Source of the DNA: an uncultured Candidatus Saccharibacteria bacterium
GTDB lineage: Bacteria; Patescibacteriota; Minisyncoccia; Phycocordibacterales; PALSA-1337
Reading direction: 5' to 3'
Length of the DNA stretch: 55,154 bases
Assembly (NCBI GenBank): GCA_964416985.1
Contig: CAYQFS010000002.1
Location: forward strand, 1 to 55,154
In this document: positions 20,317-34,665 of the stretch, one piece after another
How positions within the stretch are numbered: the stretch's first letter is position 1
Layout of the letters: the number at the start of each line of letters is the position of its first letter
Notes under the pieces: generated by a model
Database searches by the model: none
Seen by the model: the letters and a program-made list of their open reading frames with translations, nothing else
What the model was told of the DNA's origin: nothing
Translations under genes and position numbers: made by a program

Positions 20317-21189
20317 ATGCATTCCATCCTCCTTTATTACAAATATATCCCTCTCGAACATCCTGAAAAAATCACCGGATTGCAGAAAGTTTTGTGTCAA
20401 AAATTAAACCTCAAGGGTCGCATCATTATTGCTAAAGAGGGAATAAATGGAACGGTAGAAGGGCTCGATCATGACATTACAACCTACATGGAAGAGACGA
20501 GGAAGATTCCTGAGTTTGCAGATATTCAATTTAAAATAAGTAAAGGAACAGGAACCGCATTTCCGAGACTCTCAGTGAAAACAAGAAATGAAATTGTAAC
20601 ACTTGGACGGCCAGAACTTTTTCCAAGGCCTGGTGAGACTGGGGCAGCGTATCTTTCGCCTGATGAACTTCATAGTTGGTTTCAAAACAAGGAGAAGGAT
20701 TTTGTAATATTTGATATGAGGAATGACTACGAATTTGAAGCGGGAAGATTTGATAATTCGGTGGTGATGCCGGTCAGATATTTTAGAGACATTCCACAAC
20801 ACGTAAGGGAGATTGAAAAAATGAAACATAAAACAGTTGTGGCTGTTTGTACAGGAGGAGTGCGTTGTGAAAAGGGAACAGCATATCTCAAAAAAGAACT
20901 CGGATTTAAGGATGTCTACCAATTACATGAGGGAATCGTGACGTATATGAACAAGTATCCACAAGGGCATTTCAAGGGATCGCTTTATGTTTTTGACAAT
21001 AGGATGACCATGAGGAGCGAAGGAATGCCGGAAGTAATTCTCGGAAAATGTGAAGGCTGTGCAGAGGCCTGTGAGCAATTTGTAAATTGTTCACTTTCAA
21101 CCTGCAGAAAGCAGTCTATTTTTTGTAATGAATGCCTCGAAAAAATGGGAGGGAAGGACAAGTGTATCTGTCGAGAGCACGTGGTATAA
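20317..21189 (+). CDS. trhO: rhodanese-domain tRNA uridine(34) hydroxylase TrhO/YceA family
   Basis: LLYYKY, LKGRIIIAKEGINGT, DMRNDYE, CTGGVRCEK, GSLYVFDNR. Confidence 0.88.
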   Translation: MHSILLYYKYIPLEHPEKITGLQKVLCQKLNLKGRIIIAKEGINGTVEGLDHDITTYMEETRKIPEFADIQFKISKGTGTAFPRLSVKTRNEIVTLGRPELFPRPGETGAAYLSPDELHSWFQNKEKDFVIFDMRNDYEFEAGRFDNSVVMPVRYFRDIPQHVREIEKMKHKTVVAVCTGGVRCEKGTAYLKKELGFKDVYQLHEGIVTYMNKYPQGHFKGSLYVFDNRMTMRSEGMPEVILGKCEGCAEACEQFVNCSLSTCRKQSIFCNECLEKMGGKDKCICREHVV

Positions 21190-21199
21190 TCACTGCATT

Positions 21200-22333
21200 A
21201 TGAAAACAACAGGATTATCAGGCAATGAAATATATTGCCTTGACAAAATTGGCTACAAAGCTGGTGATTTACTCGTGGGAAACAGCGTGCATTCATTGGG
21301 TTTGGGACGAAGTATTGGCTCAACATTTAGGGCAATCGCCGGTGGAGAAGTAACTCAGTTTACACATTTGATAGAGGAGGGTCGTGAAGCCGCTCTCATG
21401 CGAATGGAAAAGGAGGCACAAGATCGTGGAGCAGTCGGTATTACGGGGGTGACAAGTGAAATCGTCTTTCACGGAACAAATATTGAATTCCTTTCTGTTG
21501 GATCATCCCTCCATACAAAAGGAAATGATGGAACACCTGAAAAATATTCATTCAGCACTTCAGCAGATGGTCAGGATCTCTATGCTCAGGAAGATGCAGG
21601 ATATAAACCCTTAAAATTTGTCTTTGGAAATGTTGCCTATTCGATAGGAATTGCAAGCGGAATTCTTGGGGCACTCAAGACTCTCGCGAGAGGTGAGGTT
21701 CGTGAATTCTCAGATATTTTTAATAAGACACGCCATCTTGCTCTTGAACGAATTACAAATGAAGCAAAAAAAGCTGGAGCAAATGCTGTCGTCGGAATCG
21801 AGACGACCATCCTCCCGCTTATGGGCTCTGGTCTCCAGGAAATGCTCATGATCGGAACGGCAGCTCACAACCCCTATTTACCAAAGGACTCAGTCGTAAC
21901 AAGCGACCTTACACCACAAGAAATGTGGAATCTCAATAAGATGGGATATGCTCCTGAGAAAATCCTCATCGGGACGTCGGTGTATTCCCTTGGACTTGTA
22001 GGAAGCATAACATCAGCATTTAAGTCTCTCGTTAAGGGTGAAATAAAGGAACTTTCACATCTTATTTATGAAGCTCGCGAAAACGCTCTCAAAATTGTAA
22101 ATGCAGAAGCAGAAAAAATAGGTGCAGATGAGGTTGTTGGTGTAAAGACATATGTGTACCAGCTTGGTAGTGGCCTCATCGAATTTTTGGCAATTGGAAC
22201 AGCGGTCAAAAAGATTCCTGGACTCAAGAACCAGAGTGCTGAACTCGTTCCTCAGGTTTTTGCTCAGGACTGGGATACATTTGTAAACACTGCTGAGTTC
22301 AGCTTTGGCGTTGATCTCAACAAAGGAATGTAG
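21200..22333 (+). CDS. triple YbjQ/UPF0145 (heavy-metal-binding-like) domain protein
   Basis: three repeats of GE(V/I)xxF/L...R..AL.R/K...EA...GA..VVG; start 21200 after TGGTATAAT. Confidence 0.8.
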   Translation: MKTTGLSGNEIYCLDKIGYKAGDLLVGNSVHSLGLGRSIGSTFRAIAGGEVTQFTHLIEEGREAALMRMEKEAQDRGAVGITGVTSEIVFHGTNIEFLSVGSSLHTKGNDGTPEKYSFSTSADGQDLYAQEDAGYKPLKFVFGNVAYSIGIASGILGALKTLARGEVREFSDIFNKTRHLALERITNEAKKAGANAVVGIETTILPLMGSGLQEMLMIGTAAHNPYLPKDSVVTSDLTPQEMWNLNKMGYAPEKILIGTSVYSLGLVGSITSAFKSLVKGEIKELSHLIYEARENALKIVNAEAEKIGADEVVGVKTYVYQLGSGLIEFLAIGTAVKKIPGLKNQSAELVPQVFAQDWDTFVNTAEFSFGVDLNKGM

Positions 22334-24286: not shown

Positions 24287-24673
24287 ATGATAGAAGAAAA
24301 AGAACCACCATATTTTAAAGAGTTCAGGAATCTTGTTGTAAAGAGGTTTGATCAATTGGAAGTAAAAATAGAGAAAGAAGTAGAAAGTCTCGCTCTTTCG
24401 ACCGCAAATCAATTTAAAAGAATAGATGAACGGTTTGATGAAATAGATCTTAGATTTGATGGAGTAGATCAAAGATTAGATCGGCTAGAGATAAGAATCG
24501 AGGCGGTAGAAAATGTCTGTGACGGTCTTGTCCATAACATGGCTGGAATAAAGAAAAATATAGAGATGATAGAAGTATACATTGGTGGGTACGAGGTAAG
24601 AGCCACTAACTTTGAACAAATTGTTTTGCAGGATTTAAGACCTAGGATTGTCGCTCTTGAGAAATTGGCCTAA
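24287..24673 (+). CDS. coiled-coil hypothetical protein
   Basis: heptad-like RFD/RID/RLD repeats. Confidence 0.7.
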   Translation: MIEEKEPPYFKEFRNLVVKRFDQLEVKIEKEVESLALSTANQFKRIDERFDEIDLRFDGVDQRLDRLEIRIEAVENVCDGLVHNMAGIKKNIEMIEVYIGGYEVRATNFEQIVLQDLRPRIVALEKLA

Positions 24674-24694: not shown

Positions 24695-25792
24695 ATGAGT
24701 CTTTCCATCGGCATCGTCGGCCTTCCGAATGTGGGCAAATCGACTCTCTTTAATGCTCTTACAAAAAAGAGCGTGCTTGTTGCAAACTATCCTTTTGCGA
24801 CGATTGACCCCTCAGTTGGAGTCGTAGCTGTTCCTGACGAGCGACTTTGGAAGCTTTCTGAATTTTCAAAGACCCAAAAAACTGTTCCGGCAGTCGTGGA
24901 GTTTGTTGATATTGCTGGACTTGTCAAAGGAGCATCCGACGGAGAAGGTCTCGGAAACCAATTTCTTTCTAATATTCGTGAGACAGATGCTATTGCTGAA
25001 GTCGTAAGAATTTTTGAAGATGACAATATTATCCATGTTGATGGAAAAATAAATCCCATTAAGGATATTGAGGTAATTAATCTTGAACTCATTCTTGCTG
25101 ATCTTCAGACAGTTACAAAACGTCTTGCAAATCTCAACAAAGAAGTCAAAGCAGGTAAAAAAGAGGCCATTATCGAAAATGGACTCGTTGAACGGATCAA
25201 AATTGCACTCGAGGCTGGAAAGCTCGCATCGACTGTTGAGGCAAATGAATTTGAAAAGCCATTTTTGAAATCACTCCACCTCCTCACTTCAAAACCATTT
25301 ATGTATATTTTGAATAAGAAAGCAGGAGGGAAGAATCTTGATGAAATGAATGATGAACGCTACAAAGCCCTTATTTCATTTTTTGCTGACAACAAAGCAA
25401 AATGGGTAATCGTTGACGCTGGAATTGAACATGAACTTAAAGACATTGATGATAAAGATAAAAAAGAACTGAGGGAGGGTCTTGGTTCAAAGGATGACGG
25501 AATCGATGATCTCATTAAAAAAGGTTACGAACTTTTGAATCTTATTACCTATTTTACAACTGGCGAAAAGGAGACACGAGCCTGGACGATCGGTCGTGGC
25601 TGGACTGCACCTGAGGCTGGGACTGCTATTCATGGAGATTTTAAGGATAAATTTATTCGGGCAGAAGTCATTGAGTGGGACAAACTGATCGAATCGGGAT
25701 CATTTGGCGCTGCGCGCGAAAAAGGGCTTTTGAGGACGGAGGGGAAAGAGTATGTGGTGAAGGATGGGGATGTGATGGAGTTTAAGATCTAG
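24695..25792 (+). CDS. ychF: redox-regulated ATPase YchF
   Basis: GLPNVGKSTLFN, NYPFATI, DIAGLVKGAS, TGS domain ending YVVKDGDV. Confidence 0.97.
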   Translation: MSLSIGIVGLPNVGKSTLFNALTKKSVLVANYPFATIDPSVGVVAVPDERLWKLSEFSKTQKTVPAVVEFVDIAGLVKGASDGEGLGNQFLSNIRETDAIAEVVRIFEDDNIIHVDGKINPIKDIEVINLELILADLQTVTKRLANLNKEVKAGKKEAIIENGLVERIKIALEAGKLASTVEANEFEKPFLKSLHLLTSKPFMYILNKKAGGKNLDEMNDERYKALISFFADNKAKWVIVDAGIEHELKDIDDKDKKELREGLGSKDDGIDDLIKKGYELLNLITYFTTGEKETRAWTIGRGWTAPEAGTAIHGDFKDKFIRAEVIEWDKLIESGSFGAAREKGLLRTEGKEYVVKDGDVMEFKI

Positions 25793-25971: not shown

Positions 25972-26043
25972 TCAAATAAACCCCGCTAGATCTGTACAGG
26001 TTTCTGTACTCTAGTGGGGTTTTGTTATATGATACTCATCACT

Positions 26044-28887
26044 ATGACCCCGTATGACCACAGCAAAATTGAGAAGAAATGGCAGAAGTATTGGGAAGCA
26101 AAGAAACTGTACAAGGCAAGCGACACATCCAAGGCAAAGAAATTCTATGCACTCATCGAATTTCCATATCCATCAGGAGATGGACTCCATGTTGGACACA
26201 TCAGAAGCAACACGGCCATGGATGTCATTTCAAGAAAGCGCCGAGCAGAAGGATACAATGTACTCTATCCAATTGGCTGGGATGCATTTGGACTTCCGAC
26301 AGAAAATTATGCAATTAAGACAGGAATTCAGCCTGCAGTCGTAACAAAAAGGAACACCGCAACATTTCGAAAGCAGCTTAAGGCACTCGGCTTCTCATTT
26401 GACTGGTCGCGGGAGATAGATACGACGGATCCAAAATACTACAAATGGACACAATGGATTTTCTTGCAGTTTTTGAAGAAAGGACTCGCATACAAAAAAA
26501 AGATGACGATCAATTGGTGTCCAAAGGATTTAATCGGCCTTGCAAACGAGGAAGTTGTGAACGGCTGTTGTGAACGCTGTGGTACAAAAGTTGAGAAAAA
26601 AGAAAAGGAACAATGGATGCTTGCCATTACAAAGTACGCAGACCGACTCGACAAGGATCTCGATGAGACGGAATTTCTCGAGAAAATAAAAATCCAACAG
26701 CGAAATTGGATTGGTAAGAGCGAGGGGGCAGAAATTGAATTTGAAATAAAGGGAAGAGACAAGAAGATAAAGGTCTTTACCACTCGACCAGATACGATTT
26801 TTGGTGTTACGTATGTTGTTCTTGCTCCTGAACATGAATATGTAAAAGAACTCAGTGCTTCAGCTGCAAATAATTCCGAAATTGAATCATATATAAAAGG
26901 AGTAAAGACAAAATCGGATATTGAGAGAACTGATGCGACTTCATTAAAAACTGGTGTGCAAATAAAAGGCGTTAGTGCTCTACATCCTGCCACAAAAGAA
27001 GAAATTCCAGTCTGGATTGCTGACTATGTTCTTGCTGACTATGGAACGGGAGCTGTAATGGCTGTTCCGGCACACGATGAGCGAGATGGAGCCTTCGCAA
27101 AGAAATATAAATTGCCCGTGAAGCAGGTTATCGAGCCACTCTATATTAAAAAGGACGGGGTTGATGCTGTAAAAGAAGGAAAACCGTTTGTGGAAAGGGA
27201 AGCTGCAATTTGTATCGTAAAGCACTGGTCTGAGGATAAGTATCTTTGTTCAAAATGGAAAACAAATGACTGGAGGGGATTTGTTATTGGAGGAATTGAA
27301 CGGGGAGAAAATGAGGGAGTGGCTGCTGTAAGAGAGCTCGCGGAAGAGACAGGATATATTAATGGGAAATACATAAGGACTCTCGGAAAATTTCATTCAA
27401 AGTTTTGGCATGATGTAAAAGCAGTCAATCGTCACGCGCATTTTAAAGTTGTATATATTGAACTTCAAAGTAATGCACGACAGGTGGTAGCAGAAGAAGA
27501 AAAGAAGCTTCATGATATCGAGTGGGTTTCAAAAAAAGAGGTGAGGGATTTTATCAATCGCCCTGATCTTAAATATTCCTGGGATCTTTTTGCTTCTTCC
27601 TATGTTGCCTATGCTGGCGATGGAATTCTCATTAATTCTAGTGATTTCAACGGAAAAGAATCTCAGACTGTTCACAAAGAAATTACAGAATTTGCCCAAG
27701 GAAAGTGGGTTACCAAGTTCAAACTTCGCGACTGGATCTTTTCACGTCAGAGATATTGGGGTGAGCCGATCCCAGTTGTTCACTGCGAAAAATGCGGAAT
27801 CGTCCCATTGCCTGAAAAAGAATTACCTCTCAAGTTACCAAAAGTAAAAAACTATCAGCCAACAGAAACAGGAGAATCGCCCCTTGCAACGATTTCAAAA
27901 TGGGTAACTACAAAGTGTCCAACATGCAAAGGACCGGCACGACGAGAGACCGACACTATGCCAAACTGGGCAGGATCAAGTTGGTATTACTTGCGTTACA
28001 TTGATCCAAAAAATACAAAGGCATTTGCTGACCCGGAGAAAATAAACTACTGGACGCCGGTTGACTGGTACAACGGAGGAATGGAACACACGACACTCCA
28101 CCTTCTTTACTCGCGATTTTGGCACAAATTTCTCTTTGACCTCGGACTTGTACCGACCTCTGAACCATACAAAAAAAGAACATCTCACGGACTTATCCTT
28201 GCTTCTGGAGGAGAGAAGATGTCAAAGTCAAAAGGTAATGTCATTAACCCTGATTCAATTGTAAAAACCGTCGGGGCTGATGCCTTGCGTGTATACGAAA
28301 TGTTCATGGGGCCTTTTGATCAGCATATTGCCTGGGATACCAACAACATTGCCGGATCTCGACGATTTATCGAGCGAGTTTGGAAACTTGCCGAGAGAGT
28401 TGGTTCTCCAACAGCCGAAAGTGCTCTAAAAGTTGATGCAATTATTCACAAGACGATCAAAAAAGTCTCTGATGATATTGAGGAGATGAAATTTAATACA
28501 GCAATTAGCGCGATGATGATTGCTGTAAATGAACTTGAAAAAGAGACAGTTATTTCGCCAGATTCGTACAGAATTCTCGTAAAACTTTTCTCACCATTTG
28601 CACCACATGCTGCAGAAGAGCTCTGGGCAGGGCAAAAGGAGAAAAAGTCGGTGCACGTAGCTCCCTGGCCAGTTTTTGACCCTTCAAAGGTGGTCGAAAG
28701 CTCGGTAAAGATCGTCGTTCAGATCAATGGAAAGGTCCGTGCAGAGTTTGAGATGGCTGCAGGGGCTTCAGATGATGAAATCAAGAAGGTCGCCCTTGAG
28801 CGTCCTGAGATAGCAAAATGGATAGAGGGGAAGGAGATCAAAAAGGTCATCGCAATAAAGGGAAGGCTTGTCAATATCGCGGTATAG
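26044..28887 (+). CDS. leuS: leucine--tRNA ligase with inserted NUDIX domain
   Basis: HVGH, GWDAFGLP, editing motifs FTTRPDT and GTGAVMAVPAHDERD, KMSKS; start refined to ATG 26044. Confidence 0.97.
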   Translation: MTPYDHSKIEKKWQKYWEAKKLYKASDTSKAKKFYALIEFPYPSGDGLHVGHIRSNTAMDVISRKRRAEGYNVLYPIGWDAFGLPTENYAIKTGIQPAVVTKRNTATFRKQLKALGFSFDWSREIDTTDPKYYKWTQWIFLQFLKKGLAYKKKMTINWCPKDLIGLANEEVVNGCCERCGTKVEKKEKEQWMLAITKYADRLDKDLDETEFLEKIKIQQRNWIGKSEGAEIEFEIKGRDKKIKVFTTRPDTIFGVTYVVLAPEHEYVKELSASAANNSEIESYIKGVKTKSDIERTDATSLKTGVQIKGVSALHPATKEEIPVWIADYVLADYGTGAVMAVPAHDERDGAFAKKYKLPVKQVIEPLYIKKDGVDAVKEGKPFVEREAAICIVKHWSEDKYLCSKWKTNDWRGFVIGGIERGENEGVAAVRELAEETGYINGKYIRTLGKFHSKFWHDVKAVNRHAHFKVVYIELQSNARQVVAEEEKKLHDIEWVSKKEVRDFINRPDLKYSWDLFASSYVAYAGDGILINSSDFNGKESQTVHKEITEFAQGKWVTKFKLRDWIFSRQRYWGEPIPVVHCEKCGIVPLPEKELPLKLPKVKNYQPTETGESPLATISKWVTTKCPTCKGPARRETDTMPNWAGSSWYYLRYIDPKNTKAFADPEKINYWTPVDWYNGGMEHTTLHLLYSRFWHKFLFDLGLVPTSEPYKKRTSHGLILASGGEKMSKSKGNVINPDSIVKTVGADALRVYEMFMGPFDQHIAWDTNNIAGSRRFIERVWKLAERVGSPTAESALKVDAIIHKTIKKVSDDIEEMKFNTAISAMMIAVNELEKETVISPDSYRILVKLFSPFAPHAAEELWAGQKEKKSVHVAPWPVFDPSKVVESSVKIVVQINGKVRAEFEMAAGASDDEIKKVALERPEIAKWIEGKEIKKVIAIKGRLVNIAV
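27139..27606 (+). other. NUDIX hydrolase domain inserted in LeuRS
   Basis: exact GX5EX7REUXEEXGU box GGIERGENEGVAAVRELAEETGY at 27289-27357. Confidence 0.88.
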
Positions 28888-28983
28888 GGGCAATTTAAGA
28901 TGAGATTAATCATTAATACACCAAACAGTTGACTTATATACAAGAAGGTGATAAAACATAGATATCTAATTACACAATAATCC

Positions 28984-30030
28984 ATGGCATCTACAACATT
29001 CAAACCAAAGCAGTCTATCAAGCGCCTTCTCTCGGTTCTTCCTGATCGTGCCCGTGACGTGCTTGTGAGCCGATATGGTCTTGGAAAAAATACTGAAAAA
29101 ATGACACTTGATGCCATTGGAAAACTCTACGGAATTACCCGAGAGCGAGTTCGACAGATCGAAAATTACGCCATCGCTAACATTCGAAAGTCAGATGCTT
29201 ACAAAGCAGAAAGAGCTGCCTTTTCTGAGCTCGAGGATCTCATACACTCTCTCGGAGGGATTGTTGTTGAGGATGATTTTCTTGGACATGTTTCAAAGGA
29301 CAAGTCACTCCAGAATCACATTAACTTTCTTCTCGTAGTTGGTGATATCTTTAAGAAAAAGAAGGAAGACGAAGAGTTCAAGCATCGATGGCATGTAAAT
29401 GAGGAGCTTGCGAAGCAGGTTGAGGCTTCTCTTCAGAAACTTTATACAGGTCTTACCGACCAGGATCTTTTGCCTGAATCAGAAATGGTTGGAAAGTTCC
29501 TCGAACACCTCGAAGATGTTTCAGAAAAATACAAAAATCAGGAAGTTGTTCGACGATGGCTCTCTCTTTCAAAGAAAATAGGAAAAAATGCAATTGGTGA
29601 ATGGGGAGTTGCTCATTCTTCAAACGTAAAAACAAAGGGTATGAGAGACTATGCCTTCCTCGTCATTCGAAAGCATGGTTCACCTATCCATTTCCGAGAA
29701 GTTGCAAAGCAGATCTCGCAGGTTTTCAAAAAGAAGGCCCATGTCGCTACAACTCACAATGAACTCATCAAGGATCCTCGATTTGTACTCGTTGGACGTG
29801 GACTTTATGCTCTTGCAGAATGGGGATACATGTCAGGAGTAGTGAAGGACGTTATAAAGAAAATTCTCGAAAAGAGTGGACCTCTCACAAAGGATGAGAT
29901 CGTTGCAAAGGTTTTGAAGGAGCGATACGTCAAGGAAAACACCATCATGGTCAATCTCCAGAACCAGAAATACTTCAAGAAAGACAAGGAGGGAAGATAC
30001 AGCGCCATCTCACAGGCAGTTACAGCATAA
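28984..30030 (+). CDS. sigma70 region-4 HTH plus C-terminal winged-HTH (RNAP delta/HARE-like) protein
   Basis: LSVLPDRARDVL..RYGL...TLDAIG..YGITRERVRQIE; C-terminal PIHFREVA...HNELIKDPRFVLVGRGLYAL. Confidence 0.75.
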   Translation: MASTTFKPKQSIKRLLSVLPDRARDVLVSRYGLGKNTEKMTLDAIGKLYGITRERVRQIENYAIANIRKSDAYKAERAAFSELEDLIHSLGGIVVEDDFLGHVSKDKSLQNHINFLLVVGDIFKKKKEDEEFKHRWHVNEELAKQVEASLQKLYTGLTDQDLLPESEMVGKFLEHLEDVSEKYKNQEVVRRWLSLSKKIGKNAIGEWGVAHSSNVKTKGMRDYAFLVIRKHGSPIHFREVAKQISQVFKKKAHVATTHNELIKDPRFVLVGRGLYALAEWGYMSGVVKDVIKKILEKSGPLTKDEIVAKVLKERYVKENTIMVNLQNQKYFKKDKEGRYSAISQAVTA

Positions 30031-33825: not shown

Positions 33826-34665
33826 ATGAACCACCTCATAACCATTACCAAGGCTGATGGAACAAAGGAGCTTTTTGAGGAGCAGAAACTGGCTGATTCT
33901 CTTTTAAATGCTGGTGGAAATCCTGAAATTGTAGAAAGTATAGTAGGCCTTGTTGAAAAGGAGATGAGGGATGGGATGCCGACAAGCGAGATTTATTCGA
34001 GGGCATTCAAGCTACTTCGGGAACACTCAATGCCTCTCGCAGTCAAATATTCCCTCCGCAGAGCACTCTCAGAACTCGGGCCGGATGGATTTCCATTTGA
34101 AAAGTACGTGGCGAGAATTTTTCAGTCAAAAGGATACGAGACTCTTACAGACCAGATGGTTCTCGGAGCATGCGTACCTCACGAGGTTGATGTTGTTGCC
34201 TGGAACAATGAAAAGCTTATAATGGTCGAAGCGAAGTTTCATAATGAATTTGGTCTCAAGTCAGATCTCAAGGTAGCACTCTACATCAAGGCGCGCTTTG
34301 ACGATCTTAGAGGCAATATGTTTTCATACGGAGGATTTAAAAGAAAACTTGATGAAGGCTGGCTTGTAACAAATACAAAATTTACGGACCAGGCAATTCG
34401 CTACGGAGAATGCCAGGGAATAAAGATGATCGGATGGAATTATCCCAAAAAAGGCAACCTCCAAGATATAATCGAGGAATTGCGCCTCCATCCATTTACC
34501 TGCCTTGCATCTCTTTCAAATGTTCACAAGAAAAATCTCCTAGCAAAGGGCGTGGTGCTCTGTAGCGATCTCGTGAGTCACCCGGAATACCTAAAAGAAA
34601 TCAAAATGAGTCCTGAGGAATCTACGAAGGTTCTAGAAGAAATAAAAATGGTAAGCGGTATCTAA
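33826..34665 (+). CDS. ATP-cone plus PD-(D/E)xK (Mrr-like) nuclease domain protein
   Basis: N-terminal ITKADGTKELFEEQKL ATP-cone; GFPFEKYVARIF, EVDVVA...VEAK. Confidence 0.8.
   Translation: MNHLITITKADGTKELFEEQKLADSLLNAGGNPEIVESIVGLVEKEMRDGMPTSEIYSRAFKLLREHSMPLAVKYSLRRALSELGPDGFPFEKYVARIFQSKGYETLTDQMVLGACVPHEVDVVAWNNEKLIMVEAKFHNEFGLKSDLKVALYIKARFDDLRGNMFSYGGFKRKLDEGWLVTNTKFTDQAIRYGECQGIKMIGWNYPKKGNLQDIIEELRLHPFTCLASLSNVHKKNLLAKGVVLCSDLVSHPEYLKEIKMSPEESTKVLEEIKMVSGI

Follow-up and report, generated by a model that had tools for sequence, protein, structure and literature searches.

Bacterial aminoacyl-tRNA synthetases (aaRSs) are usually seen as architecturally conservative, and additional functional domains are deemed a eukaryotic speciality, as in the eukaryotic aaRSs with appended GST, WHEP, and EMAPII domains. 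An essential aaRS hosting an unrelated module is likewise represented by the NCBIfam model NF040702, in which an isoleucyl-tRNA synthetase carries an N-acetyltransferase domain. The conceptual pairing of an aaRS that produces diadenosine tetraphosphate (Ap4A) and a NUDIX enzyme that degrades this compound or takes off Np4A caps is found in the LysRS-Ap4A-NUDT2/HINT1 and LysU/ApaH/RppH systems (PMC10148737; PMC7044304). Here, we describe a leucyl-tRNA synthetase (LeuRS) gene, leuS, that carries a complete NUDIX hydrolase domain in frame within its editing domain, encoded on a 55,154-nucleotide stretch of DNA (hereafter the window; contig CAYQFS010000002.1) from an uncultured bacterium recorded as Candidatus Saccharibacteria and treated here as a member of the Paceibacteria (CPR). 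In contrast to NF040702 and the eukaryotic aaRSs, the NUDIX domain is internal, occupies variable sites, occurs in up to three copies, and is sometimes accompanied by HAD, alpha/beta-hydrolase, or RdgB domains. The LysRS and LysU systems consist of separate, unlinked proteins, whereas here the partners are fused or encoded in one operon, the synthetases are LeuRS and prolyl-tRNA synthetase (ProRS), and the hydrolase activity is predicted.

LeuRS and NUDIX are each well-known families; what is new is the recognition of the architecture, its variants, and a synthetase-associated NUDIX subfamily. LeuRS-NUDIX proteins are already public, annotated generically as "class I tRNA ligase family protein" or "leucyl-tRNA synthetase". 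We found no NCBIfam model for LeuRS-NUDIX, the best match being plain leuS_bact in two stretches, and our literature searches, including those directed at the candidate phyla radiation (CPR), Patescibacteria, and Parcubacteria, returned no paper describing a LeuRS-NUDIX or any other aaRS-NUDIX fusion.

A NUDIX domain within the CP1 editing domain of LeuRS

The closest described enzymes to the host protein are the bacterial LeuRSs (TIGR00396; Thermus thermophilus 1H3N/2BYT and Escherichia coli 4AQ7), with which it shares the HIGH and KMSKS signatures, zinc knuckles, CP1 motifs, and the anticodon-binding and C-terminal domains. It differs from the T. thermophilus enzyme in having a 156-aa NUDIX domain in place of loop 364-375 and in lacking the leucine-specific domain (583-636). 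The gene and the elements of the insert are as follows.

26044..28887, + strand: leuS, bacterial-type leucyl-tRNA synthetase, stop codon included (open reading frame, TIGR00396, 1H3N match)
27139..27606, + strand: NUDIX hydrolase domain, 156 aa, "site A", LeuRS aa 376-531 in the 957-aa numbering (Pfam, AlphaFold2, Foldseek)
27289..27357, + strand: NUDIX box GGIERGENEGVAAVRELAEETGY, an exact fit to GX5EX7REUXEEXG
27403..27432, + strand: specificity ("X") loop, F464-W465-H466 (W465 being box +17) and K469-x-x-N472-R473 (family alignment)

The insert comprises 156 in-frame codons between KQVIEP (ending at 27138) and AYAGDG (starting at 27607). The preliminary description of this DNA, made from its letters alone, had claimed an intact NUDIX hydrolase at this point and proposed a hidden Markov model scan as a check; the scan placed the insert alone well above the PF00293 gathering score (E=3.4e-13, 50.2 bits against a cut-off of 21.1; 46.3 bits in the whole protein), with a canonical box and the same coordinates. 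The box match is unique in the six-frame translation of the 55-kb window, and E441, E444, and E445 are the predicted catalytic residues, equivalent to E53, E56, and E57 of MutT. In the extended form of the motif (GX5EX7REUXEEXGU), the last U position is occupied by Tyr, instead of I, L, or V. The GC content of the insert equals that of its flanks, with no shift in composition at either junction.

By alignment to 1H3N, the insert takes the place of a 12-residue CP1 loop (364-375 in T. thermophilus numbering), and an insert-free relative (L082) has ~15 residues at this point. The preliminary description had spoken of a normally short linker at the end of CP1. The short CP1 loop was borne out; on a point of wording, the insertion falls at position 144 of the 185 positions of the Pfam editing-domain model, within its final quarter and not beyond the domain. 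AlphaFold2 models of the domain alone reached a pLDDT of 96.5 and a pTM of 0.89, and in the full-length LeuRS (pLDDT 86, pTM 0.75 overall) the NUDIX domain scored ~85-95, with the editing domain still folded. A Foldseek search with the modelled domain gave 430 PDB matches at E<=1e-3, and the top 50 listed were all NUDIX proteins with a probability of 1.0. These results show the segment to be a self-contained, well-folded NUDIX pyrophosphohydrolase domain, accommodated in frame by a CP1 surface loop in a LeuRS that retains its full equipment.

The leuS open reading frame encodes 947 aa from the ATG at 26044 and is open from a GTG at 26014 (957 aa); a database copy (P0002, 947 aa) is 100% identical. 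The protein matched TIGR00396 leuS_bact at 1011 bits (cut-off 548.4) in two stretches with the insert between them, and is collinear over its full length with T. thermophilus LeuRS 1H3N (E=4e-219), including both zinc knuckles. As the preliminary description had stated, the editing motifs are intact, and the catalytic motifs were located as well.

26188..26199, + strand: HVGH, the HIGH-type signature of the class I synthetic site (motif location; invariant column in the LeuRS alignment)
26701..27138, + strand: N-terminal three quarters of the CP1 editing domain (PF13603 positions 1-144 of 185; Pfam E=1.3e-65)
26779-26796, + strand: T-rich editing motif TTRPDT (motif location)
27043-27087, + strand: editing motif GTGAVMAVPAHDERD (GTG...AHDERD; motif location)
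27607..27726, + strand: remainder of CP1 and the strand back to the catalytic core (AYAGDG...KFKL), aligning to T. thermophilus 376 onward
27916..27927, + strand: CPTC zinc knuckle, without an insert in the window; "site C" for NUDIX or HAD domains in relatives (alignment)
28216..28230, + strand: KMSKS loop (motif location, 1H3N alignment)

In an insert-free relative, PF13603 positions 1-185 are contiguous. The window LeuRS would still charge and proofread tRNA-Leu normally. We did note that the leucine-specific domain (T. thermophilus 583-636) is absent, the alignment jumping to KMSKS (window 28150-28230, aa ~723-735).

Insertions of one enzyme into another are rare, and this rarity is all that speaks for an artefact or a selfish element, be it a chimeric assembly, an intein, or a recently acquired mobile insertion; we found nothing else in its favour and consider its chances negligible. 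Contigs from wastewater and freshwater metagenomes (at least three independent runs, two studies) were collinear with the window across both junctions without any difference (X1, 26746-28274; X2, 27009-28900; X5, 27043-27758). When the LeuRS was searched against a collection of 5.8 billion proteins, the best 120 homologues (59-86% identical over the best local alignment) all carried PF00293. These homologues came from NCBI, JGI, ENA, MGnify, and Logan; the small number of named entries belonged to metagenome-assembled genomes (MAGs) of Patescibacteria/Paceibacterota, Parcubacteria, or Taylorbacteria. More than 200 homologous LeuRS clusters (NCBI, JGI, ENA, Logan) hold the domain at the same site. 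The assembly chimera, raised as a possibility in the preliminary description, is therefore ruled out, given the independent junction-spanning contigs and the 120 of 120 homologues with the insert. An intein is likewise contradicted, with no Hint or intein Pfam match in the window LeuRS and without intein splice residues (Cys/Ser at the N-junction, His-Asn and then Cys/Ser/Thr at the C-junction) where the insert begins and ends (EP|LY and YV|AY), and the composition matching that of the flanks also speaks against a foreign element. A strain variant (X6) differs at 25 leuS codons, comprising 21 synonymous and 4 non-synonymous changes, of which 3 and 0, respectively, fall in the insert.

A narrow NUDIX subfamily tied to aminoacyl-tRNA synthetases

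Searched exhaustively with HMMER against 1.84 billion cluster representatives, the 156-residue insert matched only 339 clusters at E<=1e-3, and it therefore belongs to a narrow subfamily and not to NUDIX proteins in general. A word-indexed search with the insert alone gave a single fragment (P0001), a misleadingly sparse result compared with the full-length and exhaustive searches. Sites and partners were mapped for the best 150 of the 339 matches, to which the counts of sites and stand-alone proteins below refer, and nearly all long matches among them were LeuRSs. When one genome per GTDB species was scanned, the motif [IV]KHWSEDK was found in 153 species, whose titles include Nomura-, Kaiser-, Adler-, Vogel-, Taylor-, and Sungbacteria and Paceibacterota; the locus set used below (L001-L080) is skewed toward copies with this motif. 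The organism labels of many MAGs are unreliable. We observed the Paceibacteria-type LeuRS-NUDIX in a locus titled Nanoarchaeota archaeon (L028) and in others titled Saccharibacteria or Gammaproteobacteria (including L006, L020, and L025), and these odd-phylum labels probably reflect mis-binning or automatic mislabelling.

We aligned 306 copies of the NUDIX domain from 271 proteins. The glutamate triad of the box is kept almost throughout (E16 in 301 of 302 copies, E19 in 289, and E20 in 301), as are the box glycines (299-301 copies), and outside the box R20, K41, W45, K94, N97, R98, E121, and W129 are nearly invariant. The X-loop signature K-x-x-N-R is likewise retained (K in 295, N in 297, and R in 269 of the 306 copies), and the residue at box +17 is aromatic in 97% (Y in 158, F in 122, W in 5, and H in 9). 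Because the glutamate triad is ~96-100% conserved across the 306 copies, hydrolase activity is predicted, and we infer that the domain is catalytically active.

A departure from this pattern is a paralogous lineage, mainly at sites B and B2 (defined below), which makes up most of the roughly one quarter of copies with E7->Q and R15->A in the box; these changes may alter catalysis or specificity. A structural, tRNA-binding, or nucleotide-sensing NUDIX fold without catalysis, as in CFIm25, would suit such copies if the substitutions lower activity, and several copies per protein could serve as scaffolding. We nonetheless regard a non-catalytic module as very improbable, considering that the three key glutamates and two box glycines persist in ~96-100% of the 306 copies, including 25 of 25 B-site copies, and that the box of the window copy is fully canonical. 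The variant box, GG[VI]ExGQT..AAxAEIxEETGY, with the glutamate triad kept, was seen in P0051 (249-390), P0029 (240-381), and some site A and stand-alone copies.

Mapped onto the window LeuRS, the subfamily occupies at least four sites.

Site A: after aa 375, the site used in the window
Site B: after ~aa 218, directly before the WIG(K/R)SEG linker
Site B2: after ~aa 247, within the editing domain's first hairpin
Site C: adjoining the CPxC knuckle, ~aa 635-642

Site C had also been considered as the leucine-specific domain, an assignment rejected on the 1H3N alignment, which leads to the CPxC zinc knuckle. Some LeuRSs carry two or three NUDIX copies (e.g., P0122, P0056, L005, and L079). Among the 80 species-level loci, the architectures were A only in 53, B+A in 9, B only in 5, B+B in 3, and B+B+A in 2. 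Copies within one LeuRS are 31-47% identical, compared with up to 70-89% for copies at the same site in different proteins, and the duplications are therefore old, with each copy maintained. The sites also represent natural permissive insertion points in LeuRS, which may be of use for protein engineering. One 379-aa protein (P0128) consists of tandem NUDIX copies of the subfamily without a LeuRS part, the first two being 74% identical, and may represent either part of a multi-copy LeuRS or a protein genuinely built from NUDIX repeats alone.

About 40 matches were stand-alone proteins of 155-190 aa. Of eight genomic contexts examined, seven were informative (one contig was too short), and an aaRS gene lay within five genes in four of these, in three of them within two genes; the other three contexts were unrelated. 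In several cases, a NUDIX gene directly precedes a leuS gene without an insert.

L081, 3451-3936: NUDIX gene ending 2-10 nt before an insert-free leuS
L082, 492-977: NUDIX gene in the same arrangement
L089, 4001-4573: NUDIX gene in the same arrangement
L085, 7476-7913: NUDIX gene in the same arrangement, MutT-like

Only 2 nt separate the end of P0136 from the start codon of a downstream leuS that has no insert and an unbroken editing domain; for P0150, the gap to the start of an uninterrupted leuS is 10 nt. The gene order in L081 is ychF, three small genes, nudix, and leuS, with ychF upstream as in the window. The operon containing P0132 (L085) runs TatD, NUDIX, two small genes, a YfbR-like nucleotidase, an unknown gene, a second NUDIX gene, and an insert-free leuS, the second NUDIX being MutT-like and unrelated to the subfamily. 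The nudix-leuS pairs are kept between lineages whose LeuRSs are ~40-55% identical, and four NUDIX-bearing leuS loci have an extra stand-alone copy ~1 kb downstream.

The subfamily is also found in a second, unrelated synthetase, an archaeal-type class II ProRS, in which the NUDIX domain lies between the anticodon-binding and C-terminal domains. These ProRSs form a small clade of five clusters.

L084, 2906-4837: ProRS-NUDIX gene (P0263)
L090, 2762-4693: ProRS-NUDIX gene
P0271-P0274: further ProRS-NUDIX proteins

The nearest insert-free relatives of this clade are named Nanoarchaeota or Woesearchaeota, and the clade apparently derives from DPANN archaea. L090 additionally has a stand-alone copy (P0170), located two genes upstream of its NUDIX-bearing ProRS. 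A survey of aaRS-NUDIX fusions, proposed in the preliminary description, has thus yielded LeuRSs with one to three copies at four or more sites, the five ProRS clusters, and the nudix-leuS gene pairs. The operon partners, the interchangeable and multi-copy inserts, and the second, unrelated synthetase together constitute strong genomic evidence of a functional link to aaRSs, and show this narrow NUDIX subfamily to be genetically tied to them. The operon, multi-copy, and archaeal class II forms amount to strong "Rosetta-stone" evidence of a link between aminoacylation and nucleotide or alarmone turnover that has so far gone unrecognised.

NUDIX domains are not the only enzymes inserted in these synthetases, and related LeuRSs with further inserts reach 1100-1500 aa. 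We identified HAD_2 phosphatase-like domains at site C, after the CPxC knuckle (P0014, P0029, P0056), Ser_hydrolase-type alpha/beta-hydrolase domains at site B2, in the first editing hairpin (P0040, P0111, P0198), and a bona fide Ham1/RdgB non-canonical NTP pyrophosphatase domain between the catalytic core and the anticodon-binding domain (P0180, aa 984-1167; TIGR00042, 184 bits against a cut-off of 145). Such extra domains occur in 21 of the 80 species loci (e.g., L004, L005, L007, L014, L024, and L027). Judged from sequence, the paceibacterial LeuRS is a mosaic scaffold for hydrolases. An assignment of the HAD insert as a PpaX-type pyrophosphatase was too weak for use (E=7e-5, 22 bits against a cut-off of 218).

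Substrate and role of the inserted domain

The NUDIX enzymes best suited for comparison are asymmetric Ap4A hydrolases and RNA 5'-pyrophosphohydrolases (Aquifex aq_158 3I7U, Chlamydia CT771 4MPO, Mycobacterium tuberculosis Rv2985 9CXX, E. coli RppH 4S2X, and flax-rust AvrM14 8DP8), which share with the inserted domain the alpha/beta/alpha fold, a canonical box, an aromatic residue at about +17, and basic residues. Unlike these enzymes, the subfamily has its own invariant signature of K-x-x-N-R, R20, and W129, and is embedded in, or encoded beside, another enzyme. Compared with PDB sequences, the family profile matched, in order, AvrM14, 2AZW, the lupin and Aquifex Ap4A hydrolases, Dcp2, CT771, and DIPP, with E-values of 1e-7 to 1e-4. 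The Foldseek neighbours of the model comprise 2AZW, Aquifex Ap4A hydrolase, Mycobacterium smegmatis MutT1, M. tuberculosis Rv2985 (a diadenosine polyphosphatase), AvrM14, CT771, YmfB, RppH, and DIPP (TM 0.55-0.71, 14-26% identity). The Ap4A-type relatives 3I7U, 1F3Y, CT771, and Rv2985 are among the best matches (E 1e-5 to 1e-7), mixed with enzymes of other specificities, and identity to 3I7U, CT771, and Rv2985 is 15-19%.

Ap4A comes mainly from aaRSs, and NUDIX enzymes are a chief route of its removal (PMC10148737); dinucleoside polyphosphates (NpnN) can cap bacterial RNA, the cap being removable by RppH (PMC7044304). The significance of the specificity (X) loop has been described (PMC5389931), and a Tyr 17 aa past the box correlated with diadenosine polyphosphate (ApnA) hydrolases (Dunn 1999, cited in PMC5389931). 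In the window, Trp465 holds this position, and in the family it is Y in 52%, F in 40%, W in 2%, and H in 3%, i.e., aromatic and not strictly Tyr. The conserved basic residues R20, K41, K94, and R98 would suit a polyphosphate chain.

On account of the nearest solved relatives, the aromatic X-loop, and the synthetases being a source of Ap4A, we rank first a role in which the tethered domain hydrolyses Ap4A-type compounds formed by the synthetase as by-products, at a probability of roughly 40%. Ap4A-type products arise at synthetases when the enzyme-bound aminoacyl-AMP reacts with ATP, and the NUDIX domain would act as a tethered, loosely positioned hydrolase, apart from the aminoacylation and editing chemistry, with adenine-containing (di)nucleoside polyphosphates of the Ap4A family as its likeliest substrates. 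It would cut Ap4A asymmetrically into AMP and ATP near its place of origin, which would limit both the build-up of the alarmone and the Np4A capping of RNA, in a host cell envisaged to have very few other nucleotide-sanitising enzymes.

Several points weigh against an Ap4A-directed role. No NCBIfam subfamily model comes near its cut-off, and identity to characterised NUDIX enzymes is only 14-26%. The window has Trp and not Tyr at +17, with Phe almost as frequent as Tyr across the subfamily. LeuRS is not known to rank with the strongest producers of Ap4A, LysRS and PheRS. As the sites vary and a separate-gene form exists, the arrangement would imply co-localisation or co-expression and not a fixed geometry or channelling. 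Finally, the RdgB, HAD, and alpha/beta-hydrolase inserts and the TatD/YfbR operon fit general nucleotide house-cleaning equally well. The alarmone-clearing or tRNA 5'-end-processing function suggested in the preliminary description thus holds up in part: the nearest solved relatives and the aromatic +17 residue fit such substrates, but identity to them is low and the domain scores below every curated subfamily cut-off.

General house-cleaning would make the domain a sanitiser of the nucleotide pool, acting, for instance, on oxidised or non-canonical (d)NTPs and mechanistically independent of aminoacylation; in tiny genomes, LeuRS, with its tolerant CP1 and CP2 loops and constitutive expression, would be the carrier that secures inheritance and expression. 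The RdgB/Ham1 (P0180), HAD_2, and Ser_hydrolase domains inserted at the same or other LeuRS loops, with extra inserts in 21 of 80 species loci, and the L085 operon, in which leuS accompanies TatD, a YfbR-like 5'-nucleotidase, and two NUDIX genes, make this a serious rival and the main one. Moreover, the up to three diverged NUDIX paralogues per LeuRS may have different specificities, variable insertion sites speak against a geometry-dependent role, and M. smegmatis MutT1 and NTP pyrophosphatases are among the fold matches. We still consider it somewhat unlikely. Among the best 150 of the 339 matches, the subfamily is almost confined to sites in or beside LeuRS or ProRS, with no other essential protein as a host; LeuRS loop tolerance alone would hardly account for the independent association with an archaeal class II synthetase; the nudix-leuS pairs are conserved between quite divergent LeuRSs; and the best matches include neither E. 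coli MutT nor MTH1-type enzymes. The MutT-type 8-oxo-(d)GTPase model (NF052459, MutT1) scored 24 bits, below its cut-off of 475. Either way, the architecture bears on how genome-reduced symbionts package house-cleaning functions.

The same list of neighbours contains enzymes acting on RNA ends, namely AvrM14 (a cap hydrolase), Dcp2, and RNA-bound E. coli RppH, with the YtkD and RppH models as weak matches. The domain might accordingly be imagined to strip a 5'-triphosphate or a cap (Np4A, NAD) from the bound tRNA-Leu, or tRNA-Pro in the case of ProRS, as an RppH- or Dcp2-like step of tRNA 5'-end maturation or quality control coupled to charging. Sites A and B2 lie on the editing domain, which handles the tRNA acceptor end, and the ProRS-NUDIX clade apparently belongs to the DPANN archaea, as does Nanoarchaeum equitans, which reportedly lacks RNase P and has leaderless tRNAs with 5'-triphosphates. 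We consider this role improbable. The domain occupies different sites (B, B2, A, C) and also exists as a separate gene product, which makes a constant reach to the tRNA 5' end unlikely; there is no known reason why Leu and Pro tRNAs alone should need 5' processing; the 156-aa domain shows no obvious RNA-binding extension; and the RppH-family models (NCBIfam PRK00714 and TIGR02705 YtkD) gave 16-24 bits, far under their cut-offs of 116-259.

A broader reading of the subfamily as a whole is slightly more tentative than Ap4A-type hydrolysis. We put forward, as a possibility, a dedicated "synthetase-associated NUDIX" family in ultra-small CPR and DPANN episymbionts, whose members would be obligate partners of LeuRS or ProRS, fused or in an operon, and would remove an adenylation by-product or cap. 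If so, the paceibacterial LeuRS would be a multi-enzyme scaffold with extra hydrolase domains (NUDIX copies, HAD, alpha/beta-hydrolase, RdgB) numbering up to at least four, an organisation for which we found no description in the literature on bacterial aaRSs. Independently of such a family, a whole class of uncultured bacteria carries an active-looking nucleotide hydrolase within the editing domain of an essential synthetase, and the fate and relevance of the Ap4A-type side products of synthetases become testable in a single polypeptide.

Expression and neighbouring genes in the window

An Rfam scan detected neither a T-box nor any other leader ahead of leuS; its sole match within the window was a tRNA-Ala. 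In one metatranscriptome run (X17), leuS was covered by one exact 193-nt contig and a few short imperfect pieces, which are uninformative on the expression or splicing of the insert. A gene upstream of leuS encodes a GTPase/ATPase.

24695..25792, + strand: ychF, ribosome-associated GTPase/ATPase, upstream of leuS on the same strand (Pfam)

Upstream of ychF, a 128-aa protein (24287-24673, + strand) contains RFDxxDxR(F/L)D-type repeats and has no Pfam match. Directly downstream of leuS, a 348-aa protein (28984-30030, + strand) combines a Sigma70 region 4 with a HARE-HTH domain. Further away, a 401-aa protein (21128-22333, + strand) has three YbjQ_1 ("putative heavy-metal-binding") stretches, an unusual triplicated architecture, and a 279-aa protein (33826-34665, + strand) comprises ATP-cone, Mrr-type restriction-endonuclease catalytic, and AF1548-like C-terminal domains.

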